A stretch of DNA of 64,000 bases from Verrucomicrobiota bacterium (GTDB lineage: Bacteria; Verrucomicrobiota; Verrucomicrobiia; Chthoniobacterales; UBA10450), in the NCBI GenBank assembly GCA_041167265.1, contig JBEEHG010000071.1, positions 10,617 through 74,616 on the forward strand, given 5' to 3'. The notes under the pieces are model-generated. The model saw only the letters and a program-made list of their open reading frames with translations. It did no database searches and was not told the origin of the DNA. Of the stretch, positions 3,346-64,000 are shown piece after piece. The position numbers and the translations under genes were made by a program. The stretch's first letter is position 1. Every line of letters begins with the position of its first letter.

Positions 3346-4322
3346 AAGCTAAGGGTCCTGGTGCCTTCGAAATCGAAACGGAACCGAACTTCTGCGAGGC
3401 CTTTCTCCCGCATGGCATGGCGCAGCTTTACCTTGTCGCCCGCATAAAACATGAGGAAACCCCCGCCGCCGGCCCCTATCACTTTTCCGCCCAGGGCTCC
3501 GTTTGCCATGGCGCAACCGTACCAGGCATTGATGTCGGCGTTACTCATCTCTTTCGATCGCTCTTTCTTCCTCTGCCAATGGACATCCATGAGGCGGGCA
3601 AACTCCTCCAGATCTCCGGCCTCGAGCGCTTTCTCGCTCTGTCTGCCCAGTTCCTTCACGAAATGAAGGTTGTCCATCATCGCGGTATCTGACTGCCTGG
3701 TCTTATCGTCCTGCTCTTTCAAAATAGCCGACGCACTTCGCGCATAGCCGGTGAAAAAGAGCAACAGGTTGTCCTCCAGGTTGAAGAGCGTTTCTTCCGA
3801 AATCTTGAGCGGCGCCGCTTCGACTCTGCCATCCGGCATGAACCGAAAACAGGTAATGCCACCGTAGGCTGCGATGTATTGGTCCTGCTTCCCGATTGGC
3901 TCACCCAGCTTCTCCAGTTCTATGCAGCAAGCCTGCTCCGCCAACTCCGCCGGATGCACGAGATTTTTCTTCAAAGCATGAAACGCTTTCAGGAGCGCCG
4001 TGGTAAAACTGCCCGACGATCCCAGCCCGGTGCCCGCCGGGATGTCCGCCATGCTCGTTATCTCAAGGTTGCGTTCGCGGATATCGACCAGCTTCAGCGC
4101 TTCGCGAATGATCGGGTGCTTGATCTCGTCAATCGTGGCCACTTCTTCAAGGTTCGAATATTTCAGAAGGAACCCTTCTACGAACCGGCGATGGACATTG
4201 ATATAGACATACTTGTCGATGGCCGCGGCGATAAGGAACCCGCCATGCTCGCGGTAATACGAAGGCACGTCTGTGCCGCCGCCGCCCAGTGAAATGCGAA
4301 GTGGTGAGCGCGTAATGATCAT
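3342..4322 (-). CDS. hddA: GHMP-family sugar kinase, D-glycero-alpha-D-manno-heptose 7-phosphate kinase-like
   Basis: RSPLRISLGGGGTDVPSYY N-terminus and the GHMP ATP motif PAGTGLGSSGSF. Pathway context supports the call. Confidence 0.8.
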   Translation of the reverse strand: MIITRSPLRISLGGGGTDVPSYYREHGGFLIAAAIDKYVYINVHRRFVEGFLLKYSNLEEVATIDEIKHPIIREALKLVDIRERNLEITSMADIPAGTGLGSSGSFTTALLKAFHALKKNLVHPAELAEQACCIELEKLGEPIGKQDQYIAAYGGITCFRFMPDGRVEAAPLKISEETLFNLEDNLLLFFTGYARSASAILKEQDDKTRQSDTAMMDNLHFVKELGRQSEKALEAGDLEEFARLMDVHWQRKKERSKEMSNADINAWYGCAMANGALGGKVIGAGGGGFLMFYAGDKVKLRHAMREKGLAEVRFRFDFEGTRTLSL

Positions 4323-5098
4323 GGCAACCGCTTCCGGGCGGTAGCTACTACCTGCCAGCCGAAAGGTGAGTCGAGAAGATTAGCATGAAACAAGGCCCGA
4401 AACACTTTCATCGCGAAGCGGAGCAGGCCCGATGGCTGGCCCGCGGCAGTGCTTTCGATATCCCGGGCGAGGCGCCCGCCTCGCATGATCACGAGCAAAC
4501 GGTAGAGATTGAAAAAAGGGAAGCCGGCAAGGTAAGTGCGCTCCACCGAATAACCCGCCTGCTCGAGGAGCGAACGGATCTTGGAGCGGTTGAAATGTTG
4601 ACGATGGCCGATCTCGCGGTCGAATGCGGAGATGGGGCCGCCCGGAACGGTCACGATCAATTGCGCGCCGGGAGCCAGGTATTCTCGCGCATGTCTAAGG
4701 AAGGCGACGGGATCGTCAACGTGCTCGAGGACCTCGGAACACACCGCGTGGGTGGCCCAGCCGGCAAAGTTCTTCAGCACCGGGGGCGCCTCGAAAATAT
4801 CGGCCACCACAAAAGTCGCCTCTGGCACTTTTCCCTGCGAGATCCCAACGCCGCTCTCACTTAGTTCCGCGCCGACAAACTCGGCCTTCGGAAATATCGA
4901 GTGCAGCTTTTGCACGAGGTCGCCCTGGCCGCTCCCGAGATCGAACAGTCGAATGGCACCTGGCCGGGCGTTCTCGGAAATCAGCCGCCCGATAATGTCG
5001 TGGCGCATGTGTTGCGCCGGATTCCCCGTGGCGGACTCGGCGAAACGGTCCCAGTGGGCATCCCAGTTATCCCGCGCGACGCGAGGTTGGTCAGCCAT
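4319..5098 (-). CDS. Class I SAM-dependent methyltransferase
   Basis: Motif I RLFDLGSGQGDLV and post-I acidic GAELSE, followed later by CSEVLEHV and PGAQLIVTVP. Confidence 0.8.
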   Translation of the reverse strand: MADQPRVARDNWDAHWDRFAESATGNPAQHMRHDIIGRLISENARPGAIRLFDLGSGQGDLVQKLHSIFPKAEFVGAELSESGVGISQGKVPEATFVVADIFEAPPVLKNFAGWATHAVCSEVLEHVDDPVAFLRHAREYLAPGAQLIVTVPGGPISAFDREIGHRQHFNRSKIRSLLEQAGYSVERTYLAGFPFFNLYRLLVIMRGGRLARDIESTAAGQPSGLLRFAMKVFRALFHANLLDSPFGWQVVATARKRLP

Positions 5099-5708
5099 TT
5101 TCGCGTCGCGCCACGGCGAACAGATTCAAGCCCAGCTTATGGTAACGGAGTTTAATGAGGCTCGGCTTGAATCCGGCGCGAACGAGCAGCGGCCACAGGT
5201 CGCGCTTGTCGTAATACATTTTGTGATCGTCCATTTCCAGCTTCGGACTGAGACCAAGACGGAAGGCGGAGAACTCGAGAAAGGTTTTTCCACGCCAGGT
5301 TGGAACGTTGATGAGCAACACGCCCGACGGCTTCAACAATTGCGAAAGAGCTTCGATAACCGAAAACGGGTCGCGCAGGTGTTCCAGAACCGAGATGAGC
5401 AGGACCGCATCGAACCTCTCCGATATCAGTTTGGGCAGCGTCTCTTCAATCGCTCCCTGATAGAACCTGAAGTTCGCAAGGCTTCCGAGTTCCGGAGCCA
5501 GCTGAAAATCGACGCCCACGCCGCGTTTCAGCCGGGGGCTTAGCGCGACCAGCTGAGTGGCCCGATAGCCACAACCTAACTCCAGGACTGCCAGATCGCT
5601 GCCGCTGGGCAGTTCACGCGCGATCGCACGCTGTGAAAGCCAGACGCCCAGTCGGTCGACGAAACTAAGGTCCTCCTGGCCATACGACTTCCGTTCGCGG
5701 TAACTCAA
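5091..5708 (-). CDS. Class I SAM-dependent methyltransferase (start uncertain)
   Basis: Motif I VLELGCGYRATQL, then LLISVLEHL and LKPSGVLLINVP. Track ORF 5091..5894 overlaps the upstream GT2. An in-frame TTG at 5708 overlaps the GT2 stop (TTGA). Confidence 0.7.
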   Translation of the reverse strand: MSYRERKSYGQEDLSFVDRLGVWLSQRAIARELPSGSDLAVLELGCGYRATQLVALSPRLKRGVGVDFQLAPELGSLANFRFYQGAIEETLPKLISERFDAVLLISVLEHLRDPFSVIEALSQLLKPSGVLLINVPTWRGKTFLEFSAFRLGLSPKLEMDDHKMYYDKRDLWPLLVRAGFKPSLIKLRYHKLGLNLFAVARRENG

Positions 5709-6901
5709 AGCCGTTGCTCCGGTGCGACCCGCTGAGCCATCTCCAGAAGCAGGGTGAAACAGAATGTCTGAAAGCCGACAATAATCAGAAGTAAACCAAA
5801 GATGGCCGGATGCGAAATCTCGAACAGCTTGAAGTCCGCGTGAAGGTACCGGTAAACCAAAGCACCTAGTAAAACGATACCTACAATGGCGCATCCGGCC
5901 GAAAGCAGCATGCCGCGGTCGTAACTCAAAACCCGGCGCAGTTTCTTCAGGGAGGTCGGGCGCAACCCATGCATCACCCGCGCCAGGACTCCTATTTGAA
6001 TAGAGCTATAACCAAGAGTCACACAGGTTACTCCAAACAAAAGCCAGTAGAGGCTGAATCCCACGCCCCCAACCGTAATCGGTCCGGCGGAGAGAACGCA
6101 GGCAATCAACGCCCCGATCGCAGTCAGCAGGATACCCGGCTTAAGCAGAAAGGAGTCGGGCGTGTATACGAGCATGACTTTCAGGTTTAGCCAGCCGGCC
6201 ACCCAGGGCGACAACCAACCCATTCGGCGGTGATGACTGAAGCGTCCTTCGCGGTCTTTGTAAAATTTGACGGGAACCTCGGCGGTGCGGAGCTTCAGCC
6301 GCGCTGCTTTTAGCACCATCTCACTCGCGTATTCCCAGGATTGCGACTTCAAGTCAATCCGGTCCAGGGCCGATCGGGTGAGTCCGCGCATGCCGCAATG
6401 AATATCGGAGTAATGACTCCCGTAGATCCGGTTCAAAATCCAGGTGGTCAAAGGGGTTCCGAAATACCGATGCAACCCCGGCATTGCGCCTTTCTCGATG
6501 CTGCCGCGGAACCGGCTCCCCATCACGAACTCGGCGCCGTTGCGAAAAGCCTCCACGAAGGGCGATAGCTCGCGAAAGTCGTAGGTGAGATCGGCGTCGC
6601 CCATGACAATCCACTGGCCGCGGATGTAATTGGAGGCGTCGATATAGGCGCGGCCGAGTCCGCGCTTCGGTGTGCGTAGGACTTCGCCGCCATGCGCCAG
6701 AACTATCTGGGGCGTGTTGTCGGTCGAACTATCAATGATGAGGATTTGACCGCGAACCCCGGCCCGCTCAAGCCCCTCCTTACACCAATCAACAAACTCG
6801 CCCACGGTGATCTCCTCGTTCAACGCCGGAACCACAATGGTGATGTCGGCGGCGCCGGCGTCCGTGCCGGGGGGGAGAAGATGTTCGATTTCCTCAGGCA
6901 C
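5705..6901 (-). CDS. GT2 glycosyltransferase with C-terminal transmembrane helices (polyprenyl-phosphate glycosyltransferase-like)
   Basis: ITIVVPALNEE, IIDSSTDNT and the DXD motif GDADLTYD. The C-terminal third has about 4 hydrophobic helices, as in GtrB/ArnC/DPM1-like enzymes. Confidence 0.8.
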   Translation of the reverse strand: MPEEIEHLLPPGTDAGAADITIVVPALNEEITVGEFVDWCKEGLERAGVRGQILIIDSSTDNTPQIVLAHGGEVLRTPKRGLGRAYIDASNYIRGQWIVMGDADLTYDFRELSPFVEAFRNGAEFVMGSRFRGSIEKGAMPGLHRYFGTPLTTWILNRIYGSHYSDIHCGMRGLTRSALDRIDLKSQSWEYASEMVLKAARLKLRTAEVPVKFYKDREGRFSHHRRMGWLSPWVAGWLNLKVMLVYTPDSFLLKPGILLTAIGALIACVLSAGPITVGGVGFSLYWLLFGVTCVTLGYSSIQIGVLARVMHGLRPTSLKKLRRVLSYDRGMLLSAGCAIVGIVLLGALVYRYLHADFKLFEISHPAIFGLLLIIVGFQTFCFTLLLEMAQRVAPEQRL

Positions 6902-7889
6902 GGGCGATTTCCTCGTGCATCGCTTTCATCGCGTCGGTGATTGCTTCGGAGGAGCTGCGCCGCGCTTTCCACCCCAGCGCCTTGATCTTCGAGCAATCGA
7001 ACCGAACGATCGGCACGTCACCTTTCCAGCCACGATCGCCTCCGGTGTATTCGTACTTCACCTCCGCTGGCGAAAGACCGCTTACTTTAACCGCGAGATC
7101 GGCGATCTCGGAAACCGTGATGTAGTCTTCGCTCGCGACGTTAAAGACATCGTAGTTCCCAATCGCGCGTTCATCGGCGAGCCGGATTGCTGCCAGGACG
7201 TCGTCCACGTGGATGTAGCTCTTCTTTTGAGTGCCATCGCCAAGGATACTTAGCCGGGCCGGATCGGCTTTCAGACGACGGATAAAATCATACCCCACGC
7301 CGTGGGTCTGGCGCGGTCCCACGACATTGGCGAAGCGAAAAGCACGGCCGGTTAAACCGAACATATGACAGTAGGCTGCGATAAGACCTTCGCAGGCCAG
7401 CTTACTCGCGCCGTAGGTAGAAATAGGGATGCACGGCCCGTAATCTTCCGCAAAGGCAACAGTGGGATTCTCGCCATACACTCCGCTGCCAGAGGTGTAC
7501 AGGATTTTCCGAACGCCGTTTATTCGCATGGCCTCGAGAACATTCTGGGCCAAATAGGTGCCTTCCCAGAAATCGATGTCAGGCTGGGTGACGGCCCGCG
7601 CGATGTCCGGATTAGCGGCAAGATGAAAGACCGTGTCGCAACTCGCCATCGCGGCGGTGACCGCGCCAATGTCCTTGAGATCGCCTTGGATGACTTCCAG
7701 CCGCGTGTCGGCCAGGCAGTCGTCGATATAAGAACGCTGGCCCGAGCTGAAGTTGTCGAAGACGACAATTCGTTCGACCGAGGCTCCGTCGAGTAACGCG
7801 CGAACTAAGTGGCTGCCAATGAATCCAGCCCCACCGGAGACAAAGACTCGCTTCCATCCCTCAAGAAAAATGGCCGACACCAGCGACAA
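6894..7889 (-). CDS. NAD-dependent nucleotide-sugar epimerase/dehydratase (SDR)
   Basis: VFVSGGAGFIGSHLV Rossmann motif and the YGASK catalytic YxxxK. Confidence 0.85.
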   Translation of the reverse strand: MSLVSAIFLEGWKRVFVSGGAGFIGSHLVRALLDGASVERIVVFDNFSSGQRSYIDDCLADTRLEVIQGDLKDIGAVTAAMASCDTVFHLAANPDIARAVTQPDIDFWEGTYLAQNVLEAMRINGVRKILYTSGSGVYGENPTVAFAEDYGPCIPISTYGASKLACEGLIAAYCHMFGLTGRAFRFANVVGPRQTHGVGYDFIRRLKADPARLSILGDGTQKKSYIHVDDVLAAIRLADERAIGNYDVFNVASEDYITVSEIADLAVKVSGLSPAEVKYEYTGGDRGWKGDVPIVRFDCSKIKALGWKARRSSSEAITDAMKAMHEEIARA

Positions 7890-10585: not shown

Positions 10586-10620
10586 TTCCCTCCCGGCTGG
10601 AACAACCGGCCGGGAGGGAA
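10586..10620 (+). terminator. Stem-loop terminator candidate after the beta-helix gene
   Basis: TTCCCTCCCGG (10586-10596) pairs perfectly with CCGGGAGGGAA (10610-10620), and the stem can extend inward. It starts 13 nt after the stop. No U-tract. Confidence 0.5.
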
Positions 10621-46221: not shown

Positions 46222-46998
46222 ATGGATATTATTAAAGTCGAGAACGTTGCGAAAACGTTCCGGGGCGCTAATGGCAAAACCGTAGAGGTCTTACAGTCGG
46301 TATCTTTTGCCATTCCTGGACCAGCCATGGTGGGACTCCTCGGCCCCAATGGCGTTGGAAAATCTGTTACCTTGCGAATTCTTGCAGGATTACTGGAGCC
46401 GGACGCCGGGATTGTAACCATCAATGGCAAGCCACCGCACGATGGCCGGATCGGATTTGCACCTGCATCTAGTCCAGTTTTTTCTTGGCGCCGTGCGATA
46501 AACGACATTGCGATTGGGATGGAGCAAACCGGTATTTCGCGGAAGGAAAGGCATCGGCATGTGACCCAGTTCATGAATCGGTTTTCGATCGACCTCCCGC
46601 TCAACGAGCGGATTAATGGATTCAGCTCCGGCCAGAGGCAAATTGCCAATTTTGCTCGCGCCTTCGTTGGTCCGCACCCGCCAGCTGTAATCATCCTCGA
46701 CGAACCCTTGGCGGCCTTGTCCCCGACGGTTCGCGAGGAGGTGCTCCGCTACCTCGGCTCGGTCAGGGAATCTATGCTGGGCGTTGTATTCATCGCGGTC
46801 CATTCGCTTCTCGATGCCGCTCGTCTTTGCGACTGGCTCATTCCCCTCAAGCAACGGCCGGTCACGATAAACCAGAACGACCTAATCCGTGTGAATATGC
46901 CGGCTCCCCGTTCTCAAAGTCTCGCGACGTCGTCGGAATTCCAACAATTGCTCAAGCAGATGGAAACCATTTATCCAGCAATGGCTCCGACGGTATGA
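46222..46998 (+). CDS. ABC transporter ATP-binding protein (NitT/TauT-type)
   Basis: Walker A GPNGVGKS, signature FSSGQRQ and Walker B VIILDEP. Confidence 0.85.
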   Translation: MDIIKVENVAKTFRGANGKTVEVLQSVSFAIPGPAMVGLLGPNGVGKSVTLRILAGLLEPDAGIVTINGKPPHDGRIGFAPASSPVFSWRRAINDIAIGMEQTGISRKERHRHVTQFMNRFSIDLPLNERINGFSSGQRQIANFARAFVGPHPPAVIILDEPLAALSPTVREEVLRYLGSVRESMLGVVFIAVHSLLDAARLCDWLIPLKQRPVTINQNDLIRVNMPAPRSQSLATSSEFQQLLKQMETIYPAMAPTV

Positions 46999-47753
46999 GT
47001 TTCGCGACCCTTAGGGCCAAATTCGGTCTGTCGATCCTCGGAGTTGTAACCACGTTGTTGATATGGCAGGCAGTCGCATTTGCGGCCGGTGACGCTGGGA
47101 CGCTGCCCGGACCCGTGGCAACGGTAATTGCAGCGTGGAAACTGCTCATCGGCGGATATTGGCGAGACCTGCTCGCGACATCGACCCGCGCCTGTGTTGC
47201 TTTATTGTTGGCACTGGTGGTCGGCGTTCCCAGTGGACTGGTTCTAGGCTGGTCTCAGAGACTCTATGATTCCTTTCGCGGGGTTCTGAGCTTCCTGCGG
47301 TGCCTGCCAGCTTATTTGTTGATTGTCGTGTTCGCAGCCGTCGGTCATGGCGGCGAGACCGCTCGCATAGCGACTGCCGCACTGGCGAGCGCGTGGATAA
47401 TCACCGATGAATGCGCGGAATCGTTACGCACTTTGCCCAGCGACCGAATTGACGTGTTGCGAGCATTACGCGCGGGCAACTGGTTCATTCTCTCGCGAGC
47501 CTTGTTCTTCGAGGCGTTAGGCCGAACAATTGTACCATCCGCAAAAACGGCCGTCGGCATCTGCTTTGTGGTGACGACAGTTGTTGAGGCTCTCGCCATT
47601 CCTCCGTACGGCGTGGGGGCGCGTCTCTTAAGCTTCTTTGCCGGGGCGGAACTGGCGCCGGTATTTGGATTCTTGTTGCTGACCGGTCTGGCAGGCGTCG
47701 TATTGAGCGCTGTAGTACATGGCACGGCGCGGAAGATTATTTTTTGGTCGTGA
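46995..47753 (+). CDS. ABC transporter permease (NitT/TauT-type)
   Basis: The ATG at 46995 overlaps the ATPase stop (ATGA). About 6 TM helices. Confidence 0.8.
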   Translation: MSFATLRAKFGLSILGVVTTLLIWQAVAFAAGDAGTLPGPVATVIAAWKLLIGGYWRDLLATSTRACVALLLALVVGVPSGLVLGWSQRLYDSFRGVLSFLRCLPAYLLIVVFAAVGHGGETARIATAALASAWIITDECAESLRTLPSDRIDVLRALRAGNWFILSRALFFEALGRTIVPSAKTAVGICFVVTTVVEALAIPPYGVGARLLSFFAGAELAPVFGFLLLTGLAGVVLSAVVHGTARKIIFWS

Positions 47754-55210: not shown

Positions 55211-56161
55211 TTAAAGTTCTCCATTCTCGATCCAAGCTTTTATTCGCGTGAATTTTGAGTCCGGCCAGCCCCGGTCCACTTTGGTCCGGAGCAGGTCCGC
55301 TAAGGCCTGTTCTCGAGTGTACCGGGATTGTTTGAGACCACCCGCCGCGATAAACATAGGGATGAGCTCCGAGTCAGCCGCGGCAGGCTTTTCGTGGAGT
55401 AGCGCGGCTTGCAGACCCACGGAAGGATCGGCCCCGGCCTGCAAAAGCATTTCCACTATTTCTTTCGAATTGGTTTGCAGCGCTTTGTATCGTCCCGGGA
55501 TCTTTTCGCGGCGGGCCTCGTAGGCGTCGTAATTCCAGGCGCCGTAATCCAAAATGGCGACCAAAGGATGCCCGTTGTTTTTGTCGGAACCATTGGGATC
55601 GGCTTTCGCGTCCAGAAGCAACCGGACGATTTCCGGCGCGGTCGCGCCGTTCTTGGCGGCCATCGGTAGCGGACGGTAACCGTTGTCCGTGATGTTCGGA
55701 TTCGCGCCGACATCGAGCAAGGCTTTGACACACTGCGTCGCTCTGAGCCGCACAGCATGAATCAGGGCCGGCGGGCGCGGGTTCGCGCTATTTATACTGG
55801 CAGCGGCTCCGTTGCCCAAAAGAACTTTGAGAACTTCTGCCTGTCGAGTATCCACCGATCGGAATCGTTCCACTTCTTCAGGCGAAGGGTTATAGCCGTT
55901 GAATGCTTGGGAAACCGGCTCGATGGCGAGGTAGAGAAAGTCGTTGTCATCTTTCTTCGAGATAAGCGGCTTCACTGTGGAAAGCTGGAGCAGCGTTCTG
56001 AGATCTTCACTTTTTCCGCTAACGACCGCTTGTCGGATCCGGGCGCGATCATCAGCGGCCCAGGCCGATCGAGCATGGAGCGTTACCATCAGCATGATTG
56101 CCAAGCATGGTCGCCAAAGATTGCCAGCGGGGTTGCGTGGAGTCGTTGATCGGGGGCGCAT
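55211..56161 (-). CDS. Secreted ankyrin-repeat protein
   Basis: Signal peptide ...MLMVTLHARSAWA/AD. Repeated ankyrin-type LL(D/Q)xGA(N/D)P(N/S) motifs (LLDVGANPN, LLDAKADPN, LLQAGADPS). Confidence 0.8.
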   Translation of the reverse strand: MRPRSTTPRNPAGNLWRPCLAIMLMVTLHARSAWAADDRARIRQAVVSGKSEDLRTLLQLSTVKPLISKKDDNDFLYLAIEPVSQAFNGYNPSPEEVERFRSVDTRQAEVLKVLLGNGAAASINSANPRPPALIHAVRLRATQCVKALLDVGANPNITDNGYRPLPMAAKNGATAPEIVRLLLDAKADPNGSDKNNGHPLVAILDYGAWNYDAYEARREKIPGRYKALQTNSKEIVEMLLQAGADPSVGLQAALLHEKPAAADSELIPMFIAAGGLKQSRYTREQALADLLRTKVDRGWPDSKFTRIKAWIENGEL

Positions 56162-58240: not shown

Positions 58241-59368
58241 TCAGGTGCTCCCAATTGCGGAGGCCACAGCGTGTTGGACCTGATCGCGAAACGGAATCCA
58301 CTTTGCCGCCGGAAATACGCGCCCTTTCGAAGCGTCGCTGTCGTTGAGCCCAAGCTGCGGAATTGCCGACAGCTGCTGGAACAAGGCGGTCTTGATCCGG
58401 CGTTCGCCCTCATTTTCGCCGAGCCAATTAAAATTCAGCCATAGTTCGCCGTCAGAGAGGACGGTAAAAACAGACCTGTGAGTGATTCGCGGCTCGACAA
58501 CGCTGAATGAACCGCGGTCCTTTCCATTACCCCACCGCACCTCTACGCCGGTGAGACCCTTGCAGAAATCGTGGAACGACAGAACAGCGGCAGCCGCTTT
58601 GCGGTCGAGGCGCTTGGCGACATCCTCACGGAACATTTCAAGGGTCCACGCGCGTCGGCCTCCACTCTTCTGGAGGGTAACCGTCCTTTTCACTCGCCGG
58701 GCCTGTTCGGTGTAACCAAATAAAGTGGGCACGACGACGCGCGCGCCATTCAGTTCAAATTGCTTCGCTTCAACGAGGCAGACCTCAGTCCGTTCCATCT
58801 GGCTATTTAGAAACGCTACGATACTGCGAAGCTCCGCCGACGCCTGTTCCATGAAGAAGACCAGCCTCAGCTGCCCTTGCGTGATATTATTTTCGACGAG
58901 ATCAAGCAATCCGTCGACTGACGCGCCAGCCGGCGACTCGAGCCCACGAACGAGTTCGTCGATGTGAACGCCGCGTTTCTGGGCCTGCGCTTCCAGGTAT
59001 TTGACGAGCGTATCACGAGACAGGTAAAACGAAGCGTTCGCCGCATAGTCGAACATTTGGCCAATTACTTCCCGCCGTGAGCGAGTGTCTTTAAAGCGTT
59101 TGCATTCGACCAGGGTGGGCACGCCGTCTTGGTCGATCAGCAGAAAATCCAAACTCCAGCGGCCTTCGCCCGTCCCAGGATCTTCCACATCCATCTCTTT
59201 TTTCACTAACAGCCAGCGCCGCGGATTTTCTGGCGACACCTGGTCACCCGGAATCAGGTTCAGGTTCTTTTCGAGCAGATTTTGCAGTTCCCTTTCTTCG
59301 TTTATGCAGTGGATCGGGACGAAAGCTGCGGTACTTTGATCAGCGGCGACGGAATAAACGCGGTTCAT
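58241..59368 (-). CDS. PD-(D/E)xK nuclease-fold protein, NucS/DUF91-like
   Basis: From the ATG at 59368: ...ERELQNLLEKNLNLIPGDQV...RWSLDFLLIDQDGVPTLVECKRFKD...VIGQMFDY (D...ExK core). Confidence 0.65.
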   Translation of the reverse strand: MNRVYSVAADQSTAAFVPIHCINEERELQNLLEKNLNLIPGDQVSPENPRRWLLVKKEMDVEDPGTGEGRWSLDFLLIDQDGVPTLVECKRFKDTRSRREVIGQMFDYAANASFYLSRDTLVKYLEAQAQKRGVHIDELVRGLESPAGASVDGLLDLVENNITQGQLRLVFFMEQASAELRSIVAFLNSQMERTEVCLVEAKQFELNGARVVVPTLFGYTEQARRVKRTVTLQKSGGRRAWTLEMFREDVAKRLDRKAAAAVLSFHDFCKGLTGVEVRWGNGKDRGSFSVVEPRITHRSVFTVLSDGELWLNFNWLGENEGERRIKTALFQQLSAIPQLGLNDSDASKGRVFPAAKWIPFRDQVQHAVASAIGST

Positions 59369-59610
59369 GAAATCGAGGTGCCAAGCTGATTCTATCGGAC
59401 AGAACGAGCGTCGCCAAGCCGCCAGCCGCCCATGGAAGGCGGTGAAAGCCGCCCCAAACACCAGTTTTCCTTTGATTATCCGCATTGAATCGGTTAACCA
59501 CGAGCCATTGTACAATCGCGTTGACGTAATTTTTCAGGCACCCCCCCGCCTCGCTGCTGAGTCGTCACGATTCCTGCCGCGAATTCCGACGCACGGCCCT
59601 CTTCTTTGAT

Positions 59611-61194
59611 ATGGCCGGTAAAAATATCCTCCTGATCGAGCCGGGGTACAAAAATAAATATCCCCCACTCGGCCTGATGAAGCTCGCCCAGTATCACGGA
59701 CCGCGCGGCAAGAATGACAATGTCCGGTTCATCAAGGGTGAAGATCGGAGGGTCCTCGATACGTGTTGGGACCGGATCTACGTCACTACACTGTTCTCGT
59801 TTGAGTGGCGCAAGATTGCGCAGTCGATCGACTTTGCGGTCGAAGTCTCCGGCGGACAGCCGAACAATGTGTTCGTCGGCGGCATCGCGGCGTCGCTGAT
59901 GCACGAAGAGTTTCTGAAGGAAACGCGCTGGCGCGGAGTGCGATTCATAAACGGGCTGCTCAAAGAGGCACCGGCGCGCTCCCTGCAGCTGAACGTTTTC
60001 GAGGAGGAGCTGTATTCATCTGACGTGTCTTCGCCGCCGATCGAAGATGAGATACCCGATTACAGCATTCTTGCGCATGTCGATTACCGGTACTCCGTGG
60101 TCGATGCGTACTTCGCGTACGCCTCGCGGGGTTGCGTCAGAAAATGCAGCTTTTGCGGCGTTCCGAAACTCGAGGGGGATCTTTATGACACGCCGTCGTT
60201 AACCAAAATTGTGCGGGGCATTGAGAAAATCTACGGACCAAAGAAGGATCTCGTCCTGATGGACAACAACGTGGTCGCTTCTCCGCGGTTCAAGGAGATC
60301 ATCGCAGAAATCCGCGACCTCGGGTTCGTTCGCGGAGCGAAACTGAAGCGTGAAAAGCGACCGCCGGTCCAGCGCCGTGTTGACTTTAATCAGGGGGTTG
60401 ACGCGCGCATCCTCTGCAAAGATCCCATGTATCTGCGCGAGCTCGCCACGATTTGCATCAAGCCTCTGAGGATTGCTTTCGACCACATCGGATTACGAAA
60501 GCCGTACGAGACTGCCATACGTTACGCCCATGCCGTGGGCCTCGATGATCTGTCCAACTACATGCTCTACAATTTTCACGATTCGCCGGCCGACCTGTAT
60601 CAACGCATGCGGCTTAACCTTGAACTTAATGAGGAACTGGGCATCCGAATTTTCTCTTTCCCCATGCGGTACCAGCCGACGAACCGAAAGGACAGGGGAT
60701 TCGTCGGCGAGAAATGGAACAAATACTATCTCAGGTCGATGCAAATCATCCTGCAGGCAACCCATGGAATCGTCAGCGGTGCTCCGCAGTTTTTTCGACG
60801 GGCCTTCGGCGACACTGAGGATGCGTTCACGCGTTTGCTTATTCGGCCGCACAAATTCATTTTTAACCGCGTGTGGTACGAAGAGCTTGGGGGGCGGCAC
60901 GAATATGAAGAATACCTCGCCGACGCAGCGAAGCTAACGCCGGCGGATCAAACCGAGCTGCTGGCGATCCTGGCGGATTACGAAAATCGGCACCATCGAA
61001 CCGTCCAGAACAGTATCGTCAATCCCCGCCTCCAACGTGTGTTCCGCCATTACGCGAGTTTGAACGACCAGGAGGAACAAGAGATTTGGCGGACGCAAAA
61101 AACTCTGCAGAAATCAGCGGGCCGCGCGTTCGAGGTTCCGGACGACGAGCGAGTTGAAGACGCAGGCCTGGAACTCACAGCTGTTTCGGCGTAA
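59611..61194 (+). CDS. Radical SAM enzyme with N-terminal flavodoxin/B12-binding-like domain
   Basis: CX3CX2C at aa 175-182 (GCVRKCSFCG, nt 60133-60156). The N-terminus KNILLIEPGYKNKYPPLGLMKLAQY resembles class-B-type radical SAM openings. Confidence 0.75.
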   Translation: MAGKNILLIEPGYKNKYPPLGLMKLAQYHGPRGKNDNVRFIKGEDRRVLDTCWDRIYVTTLFSFEWRKIAQSIDFAVEVSGGQPNNVFVGGIAASLMHEEFLKETRWRGVRFINGLLKEAPARSLQLNVFEEELYSSDVSSPPIEDEIPDYSILAHVDYRYSVVDAYFAYASRGCVRKCSFCGVPKLEGDLYDTPSLTKIVRGIEKIYGPKKDLVLMDNNVVASPRFKEIIAEIRDLGFVRGAKLKREKRPPVQRRVDFNQGVDARILCKDPMYLRELATICIKPLRIAFDHIGLRKPYETAIRYAHAVGLDDLSNYMLYNFHDSPADLYQRMRLNLELNEELGIRIFSFPMRYQPTNRKDRGFVGEKWNKYYLRSMQIILQATHGIVSGAPQFFRRAFGDTEDAFTRLLIRPHKFIFNRVWYEELGGRHEYEEYLADAAKLTPADQTELLAILADYENRHHRTVQNSIVNPRLQRVFRHYASLNDQEEQEIWRTQKTLQKSAGRAFEVPDDERVEDAGLELTAVSA

Positions 61195-61202
61195 ACAACC
61201 CA

Positions 61203-62597
61203 GTGCTAGCCGTCGCGTCTTCGTCCACAAAACGCCAAAAGCTCGAAGAGCCTGCTGTCGTCGGCAAAGACGTCCTCGAACTGCTCAGCAGTGCGATGTA
61301 CGTCGATCCGCTGTGCATCTACCGTGAGTACATTCAGAACGCTACCGATGCGATTGACGACGCACGGCTTGCGGGTCTCTACGATCAGTGCGCGCCGCGG
61401 ATCGACGTGATGCTGGACCTGCAGCAAAGGTCGATTAAGATCCGAGACAACGGGATCGGCATCCCTCCAAACGTTTTCGCCCGTCGGCTGACGGCTTTGG
61501 GTGCCAGCAAAAAACGTGGGTCCCGAGCACGCGGATTTCGAGGCGTTGGGCGATTAGCCGGACTCGCCTATTGCCAGAAGCTAATTTTCCGAGCGAAGGC
61601 GGCTGCCTCACCTCGCGTTTGGGAAATTCATTGGGATTGCGTAAAGCTAAAGAACCTGCTCCGAGATCACACCTATAAGGGCGACCTGCACGGAATAATG
61701 TCGGACATCATCGAGTTTGATAACATCTCCAGTGAGGGCTATCCCGAGCACTTTTTCGAGGTCGAACTTCGCGGTGTAAACCGGATAAAGAACGATCTTC
61801 TTTTGAATGAAGCGAGTGTCGACGCGTACCTCTCGCAGGTGGCGCCGGTGCCATTCGCTGACGAGTTCGGGTTTGGTGGCAAGATCACCAAGTTTTTGGC
61901 CGAGCACGATGCGGGCGAGACGTACGATGTTTATCTTAACAGCCGCAGCACGCGAATCGTTCGACCATTCAGAGACGTTTTTGCGGCTAAACAACAGCTC
62001 ATAGATCGTTTCGCTGAAATCGCTTATTTCAAAGTACCAGGGATCGAGGGAGAACTGGATGCAATTGGTTGGGTTCTACATCACGGCTATCATGGAGCCT
62101 TGCCCGAACGAAGCGGTATCCGAGGTTTACGTCTCCGCGCGGGCAACATCCAAATCGGAGATGAAAGGATTTTCGACAGCGCCTTTCCGGAACCGCGTTT
62201 CAACGCTTGGTCGGTCGGCGAGGTCCACCTGATCTCGAAGCGCATCGTACCAAACGGGCGGCGCGACGACATAGAGTACAGCTCGCATCAGCAAAACTTG
62301 GTAAAGCACGTAATGCCCGTCGCTAAGCAAATCACCAAGCTCAGTAGGTCGAAATCTGCCGCACGCCACTCTGCGCGGACTGCGGAGTCAGCATCGGCCG
62401 ATGAACTGACGCTCCAGTTTTCGGATTATCTGAATCCGAAGCAGGTTCACCTTTTGAACCGATGCTCCCCCGACAGAATCGAAGCGTACGTTGAGGTTCT
62501 GCAGTTTGTTCAGAAGCATTGCCCCAAGAGCTCGGGTCGGGTGACCGTGAAGCGGATCCTGGAAGCGATTGTCCAACGACTCGAAACCGCAAGGTAA
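61203..62597 (+). CDS. GHKL-superfamily ATPase, Hsp90-like N-terminal domain
   Basis: LELLSSAMYVDPLCIYREYIQNATDAIDDA (Hsp90-type N box), IRDNGIGI (G1) and GFRGVGRLAGLAY (G2). GTG start 8 nt after the radical SAM stop. Confidence 0.75.
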   Translation: MLAVASSSTKRQKLEEPAVVGKDVLELLSSAMYVDPLCIYREYIQNATDAIDDARLAGLYDQCAPRIDVMLDLQQRSIKIRDNGIGIPPNVFARRLTALGASKKRGSRARGFRGVGRLAGLAYCQKLIFRAKAAASPRVWEIHWDCVKLKNLLRDHTYKGDLHGIMSDIIEFDNISSEGYPEHFFEVELRGVNRIKNDLLLNEASVDAYLSQVAPVPFADEFGFGGKITKFLAEHDAGETYDVYLNSRSTRIVRPFRDVFAAKQQLIDRFAEIAYFKVPGIEGELDAIGWVLHHGYHGALPERSGIRGLRLRAGNIQIGDERIFDSAFPEPRFNAWSVGEVHLISKRIVPNGRRDDIEYSSHQQNLVKHVMPVAKQITKLSRSKSAARHSARTAESASADELTLQFSDYLNPKQVHLLNRCSPDRIEAYVEVLQFVQKHCPKSSGRVTVKRILEAIVQRLETAR

Positions 62598-62605
62598 CGG
62601 GGCCA

Positions 62606-63445
62606 TCAAGTACCCGGTGGGACTATCGCGGGCGGCGTAAGGTAGGCTTTCGGAACCTGGCCATCCAGCTTCTTAATGGGTTTTTGCATTAATTCAGCAA
62701 ACTCGCTAGTCGAAAAGAGCGGCTGCAACGCAGAGGATTCGAAAACGAATTCCGCACAGAAGTGCATAAGATTTGTCTTCTTTTGATAATAATAGGGCGT
62801 TTCAAAACTCACACGGAAGTTTTCGGACCGTCCGGTGTCCCAGCAAAAATATGGATAACAAAGCTTCAGCAGGCCCGGGTGCCCCTTTGCTTTGTGACTC
62901 GCGATGCAGTGAGATACGCCACCCCAACCCACTAGTTTGCCGGGGATGTCGTCGGCGAGACGAAGATAATCGTCCAAGCCTTTGTCCTTGAGATTAAATG
63001 TCGTGACCAACAAAAACGATCGGCCCGCGCGTCCTTGGTTGCTGATCAGTTTGCGTAACGCTGTTGTGCATCGAGAGGCAACGCGCTCTGATGGATACAG
63101 AAAGCCGCCATAAAAGTCTAAATTGTAAAGATCGTACGTCTCGCTCGTCTCGGTGAGATAGTCGAGAATATCTCCTTCGTGCCAGCGCATGTTGACTTGA
63201 ACATCACGCGCAATGCGCGCCCATTGAATTCGCATGTCACTGAGCACATCTGGGTCACTTTCGATCGCCAGAACATCAGATAAGCTTTCCCTCCACTCCA
63301 GAACGTCGAGGTATTCAACGCTTGGCATACCGCAATACTGCAGCCCAGTTAGACCGTGGGCAGCGGCAAACTGCCTGATCCGTCGGGCGTCGCGCCGGCG
63401 CAGCTCCCGCTTTTCAACACTGTCAGGAAATCTATTTTCGGGCAT
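62606..63445 (-). CDS. Hypothetical protein with Rossmann methyltransferase-like motif order
   Basis: LQYCGMPS (motif I-like), VLAIESD (acidic end of beta2), GDILDYL and YDLYNLDFYGG (Trm1-type DxDPFG-like motif IV). Motif-level evidence only. Confidence 0.45.
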   Translation of the reverse strand: MPENRFPDSVEKRELRRRDARRIRQFAAAHGLTGLQYCGMPSVEYLDVLEWRESLSDVLAIESDPDVLSDMRIQWARIARDVQVNMRWHEGDILDYLTETSETYDLYNLDFYGGFLYPSERVASRCTTALRKLISNQGRAGRSFLLVTTFNLKDKGLDDYLRLADDIPGKLVGWGGVSHCIASHKAKGHPGLLKLCYPYFCWDTGRSENFRVSFETPYYYQKKTNLMHFCAEFVFESSALQPLFSTSEFAELMQKPIKKLDGQVPKAYLTPPAIVPPGT

Positions 63446-63478: not shown

Positions 63479-64000
63479 TTACTCGATGAATCCATGCTGC
63501 TTGAATACGTCCTGCACTGCAGACGAAAGCGATTCCACGGTGTCGTCATCCACCATCGACTCGATTACCGCCAGCACGTCGGACAGCAACTTTTCCGCGT
63601 TCGGCTCCGCATTCACAGCTGCCTCGCCGCTGTCGCGATTCCGTGATGCCTTCCGTCGATTCCCGTTATTCTGCGGGTCGTCCTTTTGCGCTCGCTCCGC
63701 TGCCGCCACGAGCTTCTTGAGAATGGGGATACTCTTTTTCCGCTCCGTTGCTAGCGCTGTAGCGCGAAGTCGAGAGCGAAGCTTGGTCGTCACCTTGCTC
63801 GGCGCTTTTTTGCCAGCCGCTAAGTCACTCTTTCCCGTTTGTTTCGACAATCGCTCCTGTTCAACCAAGCTGTCGTAGATGGTCTTGATATCGAAAGTTT
63901 CGGCTTTACTCGGGTCCTTCCGAATGGCCGCAGCTTTTTCAACATTAGCGATGAACTTCTTGCTTTCGGCTGTCGCCCGAGCATCTGCGATCCGGTCTTC
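63479..64000 (-). CDS. Hypothetical charged protein; N-terminus runs off the window
   Basis: The reading frame stays open upstream of the track start (own translation ...EDRIADARATAESKKFIANVEKAAAIRKDPSKAETFDIKTIYDSLVEQERL...). Lys/Arg-rich middle, acidic C-terminus. Confidence 0.5.
   Translation of the reverse strand, partial: EDRIADARATAESKKFIANVEKAAAIRKDPSKAETFDIKTIYDSLVEQERLSKQTGKSDLAAGKKAPSKVTTKLRSRLRATALATERKKSIPILKKLVAAAERAQKDDPQNNGNRRKASRNRDSGEAAVNAEPNAEKLLSDVLAVIESMVDDDTVESLSSAVQDVFKQHGFIE

Follow-up and report, generated by a model that had tools for sequence, protein, structure and literature searches.

The window, a stretch of 64,000 nucleotides (nt) covering positions 10,617 to 74,616 of contig JBEEHG010000071.1 (Verrucomicrobiota bacterium, assembly GCA_041167265.1), contains a gene for a 527-residue radical S-adenosylmethionine (SAM) enzyme that is followed directly by a gene for a GHKL ATPase. 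In the variant of the locus present here, this pair is accompanied by HerA, a GHKL paralogue and a 279-amino-acid (aa) protein, all inside an integrase-bearing island. Our comparison of related loci showed that the enzyme belongs to a large family for which we found no curated model, name or functional study in the literature. The features of the pair are as follows:

59611..61194, + strand: radical SAM enzyme gene, 527 aa (open reading frame (ORF) with an ATG start, sub-threshold PF04055 match, homologues, AlphaFold2 model)
59611..59925, + strand: N-terminal Rossmann or B12-binding-like domain, approximately residues 1-105 (fold; sub-threshold PF02310 in relatives)
60106..60666, + strand: partial (βα)6 TIM barrel, approximately residues 166-352 (AlphaFold2 model, conservation)
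60133..60156, + strand: CX3CX2C [4Fe-4S]/SAM cluster motif, C175-C179-C182 (motif search, invariance in alignments)
60721..61119, + strand: helical C-terminal extension, approximately residues 371-503 (AlphaFold2 model, rate profile)
61126..61191, + strand: disordered acidic tail, residues 506-527, with the motif P-D-D-E-R-V-E-D-A-G-L (AlphaFold2 model, alignments)
61203..62597, + strand: partner GHKL ATPase, 464 aa (HATPase_c_3 match, Bergerat motifs, Hsp90-like fold)

The segment CVRKCSFC (residues 175-182) is the sole CX3CX2C motif of the enzyme, which has six Cys residues in total. C175, C179 and C182 were invariant in the 28 family members and were conserved in 81-83 of the 83 relatives with less than 50% identity; the motif, which a preliminary description of the locus had pointed out, is therefore not a chance occurrence. 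The alignment with all 27 homologues starts at M1. The Pfam model PF04055 scored 23.7 bits over residues 172-238, against a gathering score of 29.5, and some close homologues carry a precomputed PF04055 match. By sequence, we read the enzyme as a divergent radical SAM superfamily member, rather than a non-member, despite its score below the gathering value.

The AlphaFold2 model, built on 28 homologues (predicted local distance difference test (pLDDT) score, 83; predicted template modelling score, 0.79), and the alignments bore out each point of the domain layout in the preliminary description, from the N-terminal domain, cluster motif and barrel to the helical C-terminal extension and acidic tail. 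Residues 5-103, approximately, are modelled as a β-α-β Rossmann/flavodoxin-like fold that is followed by a poorly structured linker, the barrel consists of six β-α units at approximately residues 166-352, and the helices of residues 371-503 precede a disordered tail at residues 506-527. Foldseek matched the N-terminal domain to the B12-binding domain of AerR (7te2; probability 1.0, 107 columns), in agreement with its earlier description as B12-binding- or flavodoxin-like; sub-threshold matches to PF02310 (B12-binding) occurred in two distant relatives only. The domain has a conserved loop (E10-P11...K16-Y17-P18-P19-x-G21-L22), and residues 1-170 contain no conserved Cys. The cobalamin motif DxHxxG, which had not been seen in the preliminary description, was absent from the enzyme and from all 28 aligned family members. 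In structures of the class B radical SAM enzymes OxsB, TsrM and TokK, cobalamin is bound without a DxHxxG histidine ligand, and because class B enzymes can do so, the enzyme may use cobalamin despite the missing motif.

The 83 relatives with less than 50% identity also conserved E188, D218-N-N220, R255, D258-x-N-Q-G-x-D264, R287-x-A-x-D291, N316-Y317, N321, D324, R332, S349-x-P351, R362, W369 and R420. C269 and C282 were conserved in the core family only and, for that reason, were rejected as catalytic Cys residues. Superfamily-wide conservation of Cys is limited to the three cluster residues; there is no second or auxiliary cluster and no SPASM/twitch domain. Among 132 core-family sequences from many phyla, identity over residues 1-400 never fell below 60%; residues 421-500 were the fastest-evolving part of the enzyme, with identity falling to approximately 31%. 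The idea that the C-terminal region is a shuffled target-recognition domain was not supported: its rapid evolution tracks that of the core (r = 0.75), and near-identical enzyme cores showed no C-terminal mosaics. In the tail, V515-E-D-A518 and L520 were invariant in the 28-member alignment, and the tail may be a docking peptide. The acidic tail and the helical C-terminal extension occur only in this family. Relatives with a length of 680-820 aa have a C-terminal region enlarged by one or two extra helical repeats; apart from the DGQHR fusion described below, these distant relatives offered no informative domain fusions, only helical repeats without a Pfam match.

A word-indexed search returned 6,880 homologue clusters among 8,000 scored candidates; the best 120 clusters were 67-97% identical, came from many phyla and carried no annotation beyond "radical SAM protein" or "hypothetical". 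A hidden Markov model (HMM) search of 1.84 billion representatives returned 2,168 clusters at E ≤ 1e-3, in which the core family forms a single 50%-identity cluster. Family assignment with Pfam, NCBIfam and PADLOC gave the enzyme sub-threshold matches or none. The best NCBIfam matches were to ladderane-lipid B12/radical SAM, PhpK, RimO and HpnJ models (15-23 bits against cut-offs of 250-600), TIGR04072 scored 22.8 bits against 360, and all curated family scores were approximately 10-fold or more under the cut-off. MiaB and RimO models reached 15-19 bits against cut-offs of 251-357, and the traits of those enzymes, the second three-Cys cluster of UPF0004 and a TRAM domain, were not present, the C-terminus being all-helical. 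PADLOC v2.0.0, which includes viperins and the named defence systems, had no match for the radical SAM enzyme or the GHKL protein in either the window or locus L001.

Structural comparison gave a similar picture. The best PDB sequence match in a profile search was RimO, confined to the cluster loop (E 7e-4); the whole-chain Foldseek search against the PDB returned GDGT-MAS (7tol; E 2e-3, template modelling (TM) score 0.26) and HydG, both weak, and the search of BFVD returned only generic COG1032 phage radical SAM proteins (TM approximately 0.4). The enzyme is not an orthologue of any characterized radical SAM enzyme; in particular, the Foldseek, PDB profile and NCBIfam searches found no orthology to a characterized metabolic one, the result that the preliminary description had named as the one that would overturn it.

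The GHKL gene begins 8 nt past the stop codon of the radical SAM gene in the window, and in most loci the two genes overlap by 4 nt (ATGA). Its ATP-binding motifs are intact and invariant: an ExxxNxxD N-box (E42/N46/D49), a G1 motif D82-N-G-x-G and a G2 motif G111-F-R-G-V-G-R. The partner matched the HtpG N-domain in a profile search (E 1e-11), and its model (pLDDT 81), which ends in a long helix and then a helical bundle, matched the N-terminal and middle domains of Hsp90, TRAP1 and HtpG in Foldseek (E 2e-15, TM approximately 0.5). It is not an HtpG orthologue, since it scored 34-40 bits against HtpG models with cut-offs of 371-455. The conserved cluster Cys residues, polar barrel residues and ATP-binding motifs suggest that both enzyme and partner are functional.

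The preliminary description had drawn attention to the linkage between the two genes, and our survey showed that it is no local accident: a relative of this GHKL gene came after the radical SAM gene at 85 of the 86 loci, and the one locus without it is a 1.8-kb contig. The pairing was also kept in relatives with less than 50% identity, and a faecal "bacteriophage sp." scaffold had a radical SAM gene (34-36% identity) in the order GHKL to radical SAM, again with a 4-nt overlap. Because the pairing persists through sequence divergence and a change of gene order, the two proteins are probably a functional unit and, as far as genomic association can indicate, probably a physical complex.

Copies of the family were found on 12 plasmids, seven of them conjugative; pNL1 of Novosphingobium aromaticivorans and several plasmids of Rhizobium and Mesorhizobium are among the carriers. 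The pNL1 cassette comprises genes for PIN-like, ATP-binding, DGQHR, radical SAM, ATP-binding and large DGQHR proteins, and a Rhizobium plasmid carries a version that has the ParB/SNF2 module. Nine further copies lie on IMG/VR viral contigs. In the host phylum, a relative was present in only 5 of 401 genomes, and genomes of the same family were found without one. Neighbours at other loci include SIR2 with DUF87, Fic and PADLOC candidate families, and the radical SAM gene never lay within a biosynthetic cluster in the loci examined. This distribution indicates that the family is horizontally mobile.

Many phage radical SAM proteins of approximately 300 aa (L104-L174, IMG/VR) were 25-37% identical to the N-terminal domain and barrel. 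They have no GHKL neighbour, and we rejected them as copies of the family, as they probably belong to a different subfamily; SNF2 or DUF5131 genes occur close to a few of them. The temperate phage Marinitoga camini virus 1 (L088 5998-9824) encodes a 360-aa relative (30% identity) without the C-terminal extension or GHKL; its gene adjoins those for HerA and a NurA-like exonuclease, which lie on the other strand.

To define the neighbourhood of the pair, all ORFs within 8 kb of the radical SAM gene were clustered in 82 non-redundant loci by our own ORF clustering and HMMs. Few neighbour families were recurrent. A 344-aa DGQHR protein, which scored 119.7 bits with TIGR03187 and matched DpdB models, was encoded directly upstream of the radical SAM gene in 55 loci, and the two genes often overlapped by 8 nt. 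A metagenomic representative of 791 aa (P0212) is a natural fusion of the two, with the DGQHR (DndB/DpdB-like) domain at the N-terminus of a relative of the radical SAM enzyme. A four-gene block, present in 37 loci on either side of the pair and in either orientation, encodes a ParB_N-like protein (338 aa), a 133-aa protein, an SNF2 protein (492 aa) that is a ZorD/DpdE-like helicase, and a paralogous ParB-like protein (335 aa). An 844-aa DndB-domain protein was found in 13 loci, and DUF5131 (PADLOC PDC-M41B/M30B; similar to "radical SAM mobile pair A") in eight, in several of them beside the trio of HerA, GHKL paralogue and 279-aa protein, which itself adjoined the pair in approximately 10 of the 82 loci. 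A PIN_8 protein of approximately 620 aa followed by a second GHKL paralogue occurred in 29 loci (e.g., L020 9242-11101; see also L089 (pNL1) 4135-7643); these two genes are translationally coupled, have no PADLOC match and resemble a parallel cassette of effector plus Hsp90-like ATPase. No conserved small ORF, protease or transporter and no recurrent cyclase-like third gene was found in the 82 loci, and Pfam, NCBIfam and PADLOC detected no DpdA, DndA, DndC, DndD or DndE among the scanned neighbours in the window and related loci.

As an independent check, we scanned metagenomes using the SNF2 protein as the anchor. A radical SAM relative was present in 47 of the 80 loci obtained. In each of the remaining 33, the flank was shorter than 5 kb on one side or both, and every SNF2 locus flanked by 5 kb or more on each side contained a relative. 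The pair, for its part, occurred without the SNF2 block in more than half of the loci. Because every well-flanked SNF2 locus held a radical SAM relative, the SNF2 helicase block appears to depend on the radical SAM-GHKL pair. One locus considered as a broken enzyme gene beside an intact SNF2 module (L248) was rejected as such; its gene is an intact divergent relative (31% identity), and the contig extends only 164 nt upstream. Over the same locus pairs, the median pairwise identity was 0.70 for the enzyme, 0.45 for GHKL, 0.54 for DGQHR, 0.57 for SNF2 and 0.45-0.46 for the ParB-like proteins, so the radical SAM enzyme evolves far more slowly than its partner proteins.

In the window, the DGQHR and SNF2 modules are absent, and the pair is flanked by the following genes:

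58241..59515, - strand: divergent 424-aa neighbour resembling PDC-S11, a PADLOC single-gene candidate (weak similarity, E 3e-8)
62606..63445, - strand: 279-aa protein (dn279), convergent with the pair, last gene of the HerA-GHKL paralogue-dn279 module (recurrence in loci)
63479..64000, - strand: second, paralogous GHKL ATPase, 3' part (534 aa in full, continuing past the window end; sequence comparison)

The HerA-GHKL paralogue-dn279 operon is convergent with the radical SAM-GHKL pair and runs on past the window end along this contig (L087 3223-7097). The second GHKL protein is 25% identical to the first over approximately 365 aa (E 7e-16). HerA (466 aa) precedes it beyond the window, and its best PADLOC matches are the C-terminal HerA/FtsK models of DndH. 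The dn279 protein gave a non-significant methyltransferase hint in the PDB profile search (E 0.045) and is possibly, on this weak indication, of methyltransferase fold. Approximately 2.5 kb past the window end, and divergent from HerA, lies a gene for a 374-aa SplB-like radical SAM protein (L087 7161-8285, + strand) that is unrelated to the enzyme; it resembles PA0069/Rv2578c and "radical SAM mobile pair B", and it holds the position taken by DUF5131 in two related loci. A tyrosine-recombinase gene (phage integrase family) lies near the contig end. On the other side of the pair, the 424-aa neighbour had no Pfam or NCBIfam match and did not lie beside the pair in any other locus examined; it is probably a separate gene of the island. 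The island also encodes a 316-aa ankyrin-repeat protein (55211-56161, - strand), whose matches to the PADLOC candidate PDC-M72A and to Legionella Ank-effector models arise from the repeats only. ARAGORN reported a 96-nt "tRNA-Pyl" (anticodon CTA) at 47210-47305 (+ strand), within an ORF at 46827-47753; its length is unusual for a tRNA, and the call may be a false positive.

The layout of the enzyme, its obligate pairing with GHKL, its modular surroundings, its mobility and its absence from named families are all directly observed; even if the following reading of its target fails, it represents a radical SAM subfamily that is new and has an ATPase as its obligate partner. We suggest, with a probability of roughly 0.55, that the enzyme is the catalytic core of a mobile, modular, DNA-directed defence or modification system that is new to the literature we found. 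Because the neighbours are almost all DNA-handling proteins (DGQHR/DpdB-like, ParB-like, SNF2, PIN-like and HerA), the substrate is likely to be a macromolecule and most likely DNA. The preliminary description had proposed a macromolecular or nucleotide substrate from the GHKL linkage; the neighbourhoods favour its macromolecular side. DNA may be the substrate, the two proteins may act as a complex and their role may lie in defence.

In such a system, the GHKL protein would act as a dimeric ATP-gated clamp, like Hsp90, MutL and MORC, and would bind the enzyme, possibly via the conserved acidic C-terminal tail, to control its access to DNA. The enzyme would reductively cleave SAM at its single [4Fe-4S] cluster, and the resulting 5'-deoxyadenosyl radical, perhaps assisted by a cofactor that sits in the B12-binding-like domain, would change DNA covalently, leaving either a base or sugar mark or a lesion. 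The swappable modules (DGQHR/DpdB-like; ParB-like/SNF2; PIN-like plus GHKL; HerA plus GHKL plus dn279) would tune, read or execute the outcome. Self-marking of DNA in the manner of Dpd or Dnd is possible, and fits because of the DGQHR/DpdB-like partner, the asymmetric occurrence of pair and SNF2 block, and the slow evolution of the enzyme. Marking or damaging of invader DNA is a slightly less likely outcome; it fits because this GHKL family is also found paired with a PIN-like nuclease and with HerA, like a common switch that has alternative effectors. That the change is a novel radical-derived covalent one, such as a cobalamin-assisted C-methylation or other C-C adduct of a base or deoxyribose, which would serve as the self/non-self signal or lethal lesion of a mobile immune system of a new class, is rather unlikely; in that case the DGQHR, ParB/SNF2, PIN and HerA modules would read or execute the outcome interchangeably, with the GHKL clamp gating access to DNA.

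Several points weigh against a DNA-directed system. The DGQHR and SNF2 modules, the partners most strongly linked to DNA, are missing from the window's copy; gene neighbourhood is the one line of evidence that suggests DNA as the substrate; and the structural matches, with TM scores of approximately 0.26, are too weak for a substrate pocket to be deduced from the model. The pairing of GHKL proteins with both a PIN-like nuclease and HerA could mean that GHKL serves as a generic switch for several effectors, of which the radical SAM enzyme is simply one, acting on a target other than DNA. Finally, the radical SAM defence enzymes in the literature we found (viperins, HXS and Ophion) all make a nucleotide analogue, mature a peptide effector or have no demonstrated chemistry.

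The last point bears on the alternative that the enzyme makes a nucleotide or other small molecule, antiviral or signalling, with GHKL as an infection-sensing switch. Known defence enzymes of the superfamily act so (viperins, which make 3'-deoxy-3',4'-didehydronucleoside triphosphates, and Ophion), the invariant Asp, Asn, Gln and Arg residues in the barrel would fit a nucleotide-sized polar ligand, and the slow evolution of the enzyme would fit a conserved small substrate; in addition, the mention in print of "HSP90 + Radical SAM" is tied to a predicted cyclic nucleoside monophosphate-cyclase effector (bioRxiv 10.64898/2026.10.19.760177). However, the enzyme has no similarity to viperin or to any PADLOC model, its class-B-like layout is unlike that of viperin, its conserved partners bind or translocate DNA (DGQHR, ParB-like, SNF2 and HerA) rather than handle nucleotides, and the DGQHR fusion points to a DNA-bound enzyme; we regard a nucleotide product as unlikely. 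A role as a protein or peptide maturase, in which the Hsp90-like partner presents the client, perhaps a neighbour protein, appears quite improbable. Radical SAM enzymes with a B12 domain often act on peptides, and the partner has the full Hsp90-like N-terminal and middle fold. In the HXS defence system, the effector is reported to be matured by a radical SAM enzyme (PMC13128918). What argues against a maturase is the absence of a small ORF, protease or transporter conserved in the 82 loci and of any SPASM/twitch domain or auxiliary cluster, and the variation of the modules around an enzyme that stays approximately 70% identical, which leaves no constant protein client except GHKL.

An enzyme modifying tRNA or rRNA, of the MiaB/RimO or Cfr/RlmN type, that regulates the host or disables translation would account for the cluster loop, whose surroundings match RimO and MiaB most closely in sequence, and for the PIN-like partners (Pfam PIN_8), which are often RNases. 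The second-cluster Cys residues of methylthiotransferases are missing from the N-terminal domain, as is TRAM, and the scores are 15-19 bits against cut-offs above 250; the two-Cys mechanism of RlmN and Cfr is unlikely because conservation of C269 and C282 is confined to the core family, and the SNF2, ParB-like, DGQHR and HerA partners act on DNA, all of which makes an RNA target very doubtful. The idea of an ordinary metabolic enzyme (a lipid, tetrapyrrole or cofactor methylase) lying by chance beside an unrelated ATPase is close to refuted. It could draw on the weak NCBIfam matches to ladderane-lipid, PhpK and HpnJ models and on the weak fold match to GDGT-MAS, but those scores are approximately 10-fold or more under the cut-offs, GHKL is linked to the enzyme in 85 of 86 loci, and the gene is patchily distributed (5 of 401 genomes of the phylum), borne on plasmids and islands and never part of a biosynthetic cluster.

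If the DNA-directed reading is correct, radical chemistry would join methylation, phosphorothioation, 7-deazaguanine insertion and glycosylation among the ways in which DNA is marked or attacked in immunity, and, should the pair act on DNA, Hsp90-like ATPases would be given a clear function in the conflict systems of prokaryotes. Soil and plant-associated bacteria, conjugative plasmids and viral contigs all harbour this exceptionally conserved family, and its culturable carriers (pNL1 and several Rhizobium and Mesorhizobium plasmids) make the question directly testable.

Our search of the full-text literature found no description of a radical SAM-Hsp90-like system apart from one sentence. This sole text naming the association, and in a predicted immune context, is a preprint of October 2026 that lists a "PAACC + HSP90 + Radical SAM" neighbourhood (bioRxiv 10.64898/2026.10.19.760177). 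It gives no accessions, and our 82 loci hold no recurrent cyclase-like third gene; dn279 is not supported as the "PAACC" cyclase, its only PDB profile match being the methyltransferase hint mentioned above. Restriction-modification operons that contain GHKL ATPases (Iyer, Abhiman and Aravind 2008, PMC2292703) resemble the present loci in their SF2/SNF2 helicases, nucleases and lateral transfer; however, a radical SAM partner is mentioned nowhere in that study, and the GHKL protein here is Hsp90-like and not MORC-like by sequence and fold.

The class B radical SAM enzymes (GDGT-MAS/Tes, 7tol; OxsB, TsrM and TokK; COG1032) share the CX3CX2C barrel and, apparently, a Rossmann B12-binding-like N-terminal domain with the enzyme. 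The likeness is remote (TM approximately 0.26 to 7tol), and the enzyme differs in having no auxiliary cluster, in its C-terminal extension and acidic tail, and in its obligate pairing with GHKL within a DNA-centred setting. Two radical SAM enzymes that act on DNA are gp53 of phage M6, which takes part in thymidine hypermodification, and spore photoproduct lyase (PMC8989533); they set an example for such chemistry on polymeric DNA, but they are single-domain proteins of the spore photoproduct lyase type without a B12-like domain or GHKL, and we detected no sequence relationship to them; the SplB-like 374-aa protein past the window end is closer to that type than the enzyme is.

The Dnd phosphorothioation system (DndABCDE with DndFGH) and the Dpd system (7-deazaguanine DNA modification by DpdA/B/C together with helicase/nuclease restriction by DpdD-K) are also close in setting. 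A DndB-family DGQHR partner occurs in the family, HerA near the window locus matches the C-terminal models of DndH, and the setting is that of a defence island; the difference is that no DndA, DndC, DndD or DndE homologue lies beside the enzyme. [quoted passage not shown] In Dpd, the DpdB ATPase is reported to help DpdA to insert the base (PMC10164549). The family described here has no DpdA transglycosylase or DpdC and has the radical SAM enzyme and Hsp90-like ATPase in that place, and the window's copy is without DGQHR; however, a DGQHR protein matching DpdB models lies upstream in most family loci, the SNF2 helicases match DpdE models, and both systems take the form of a mobile multi-gene island.

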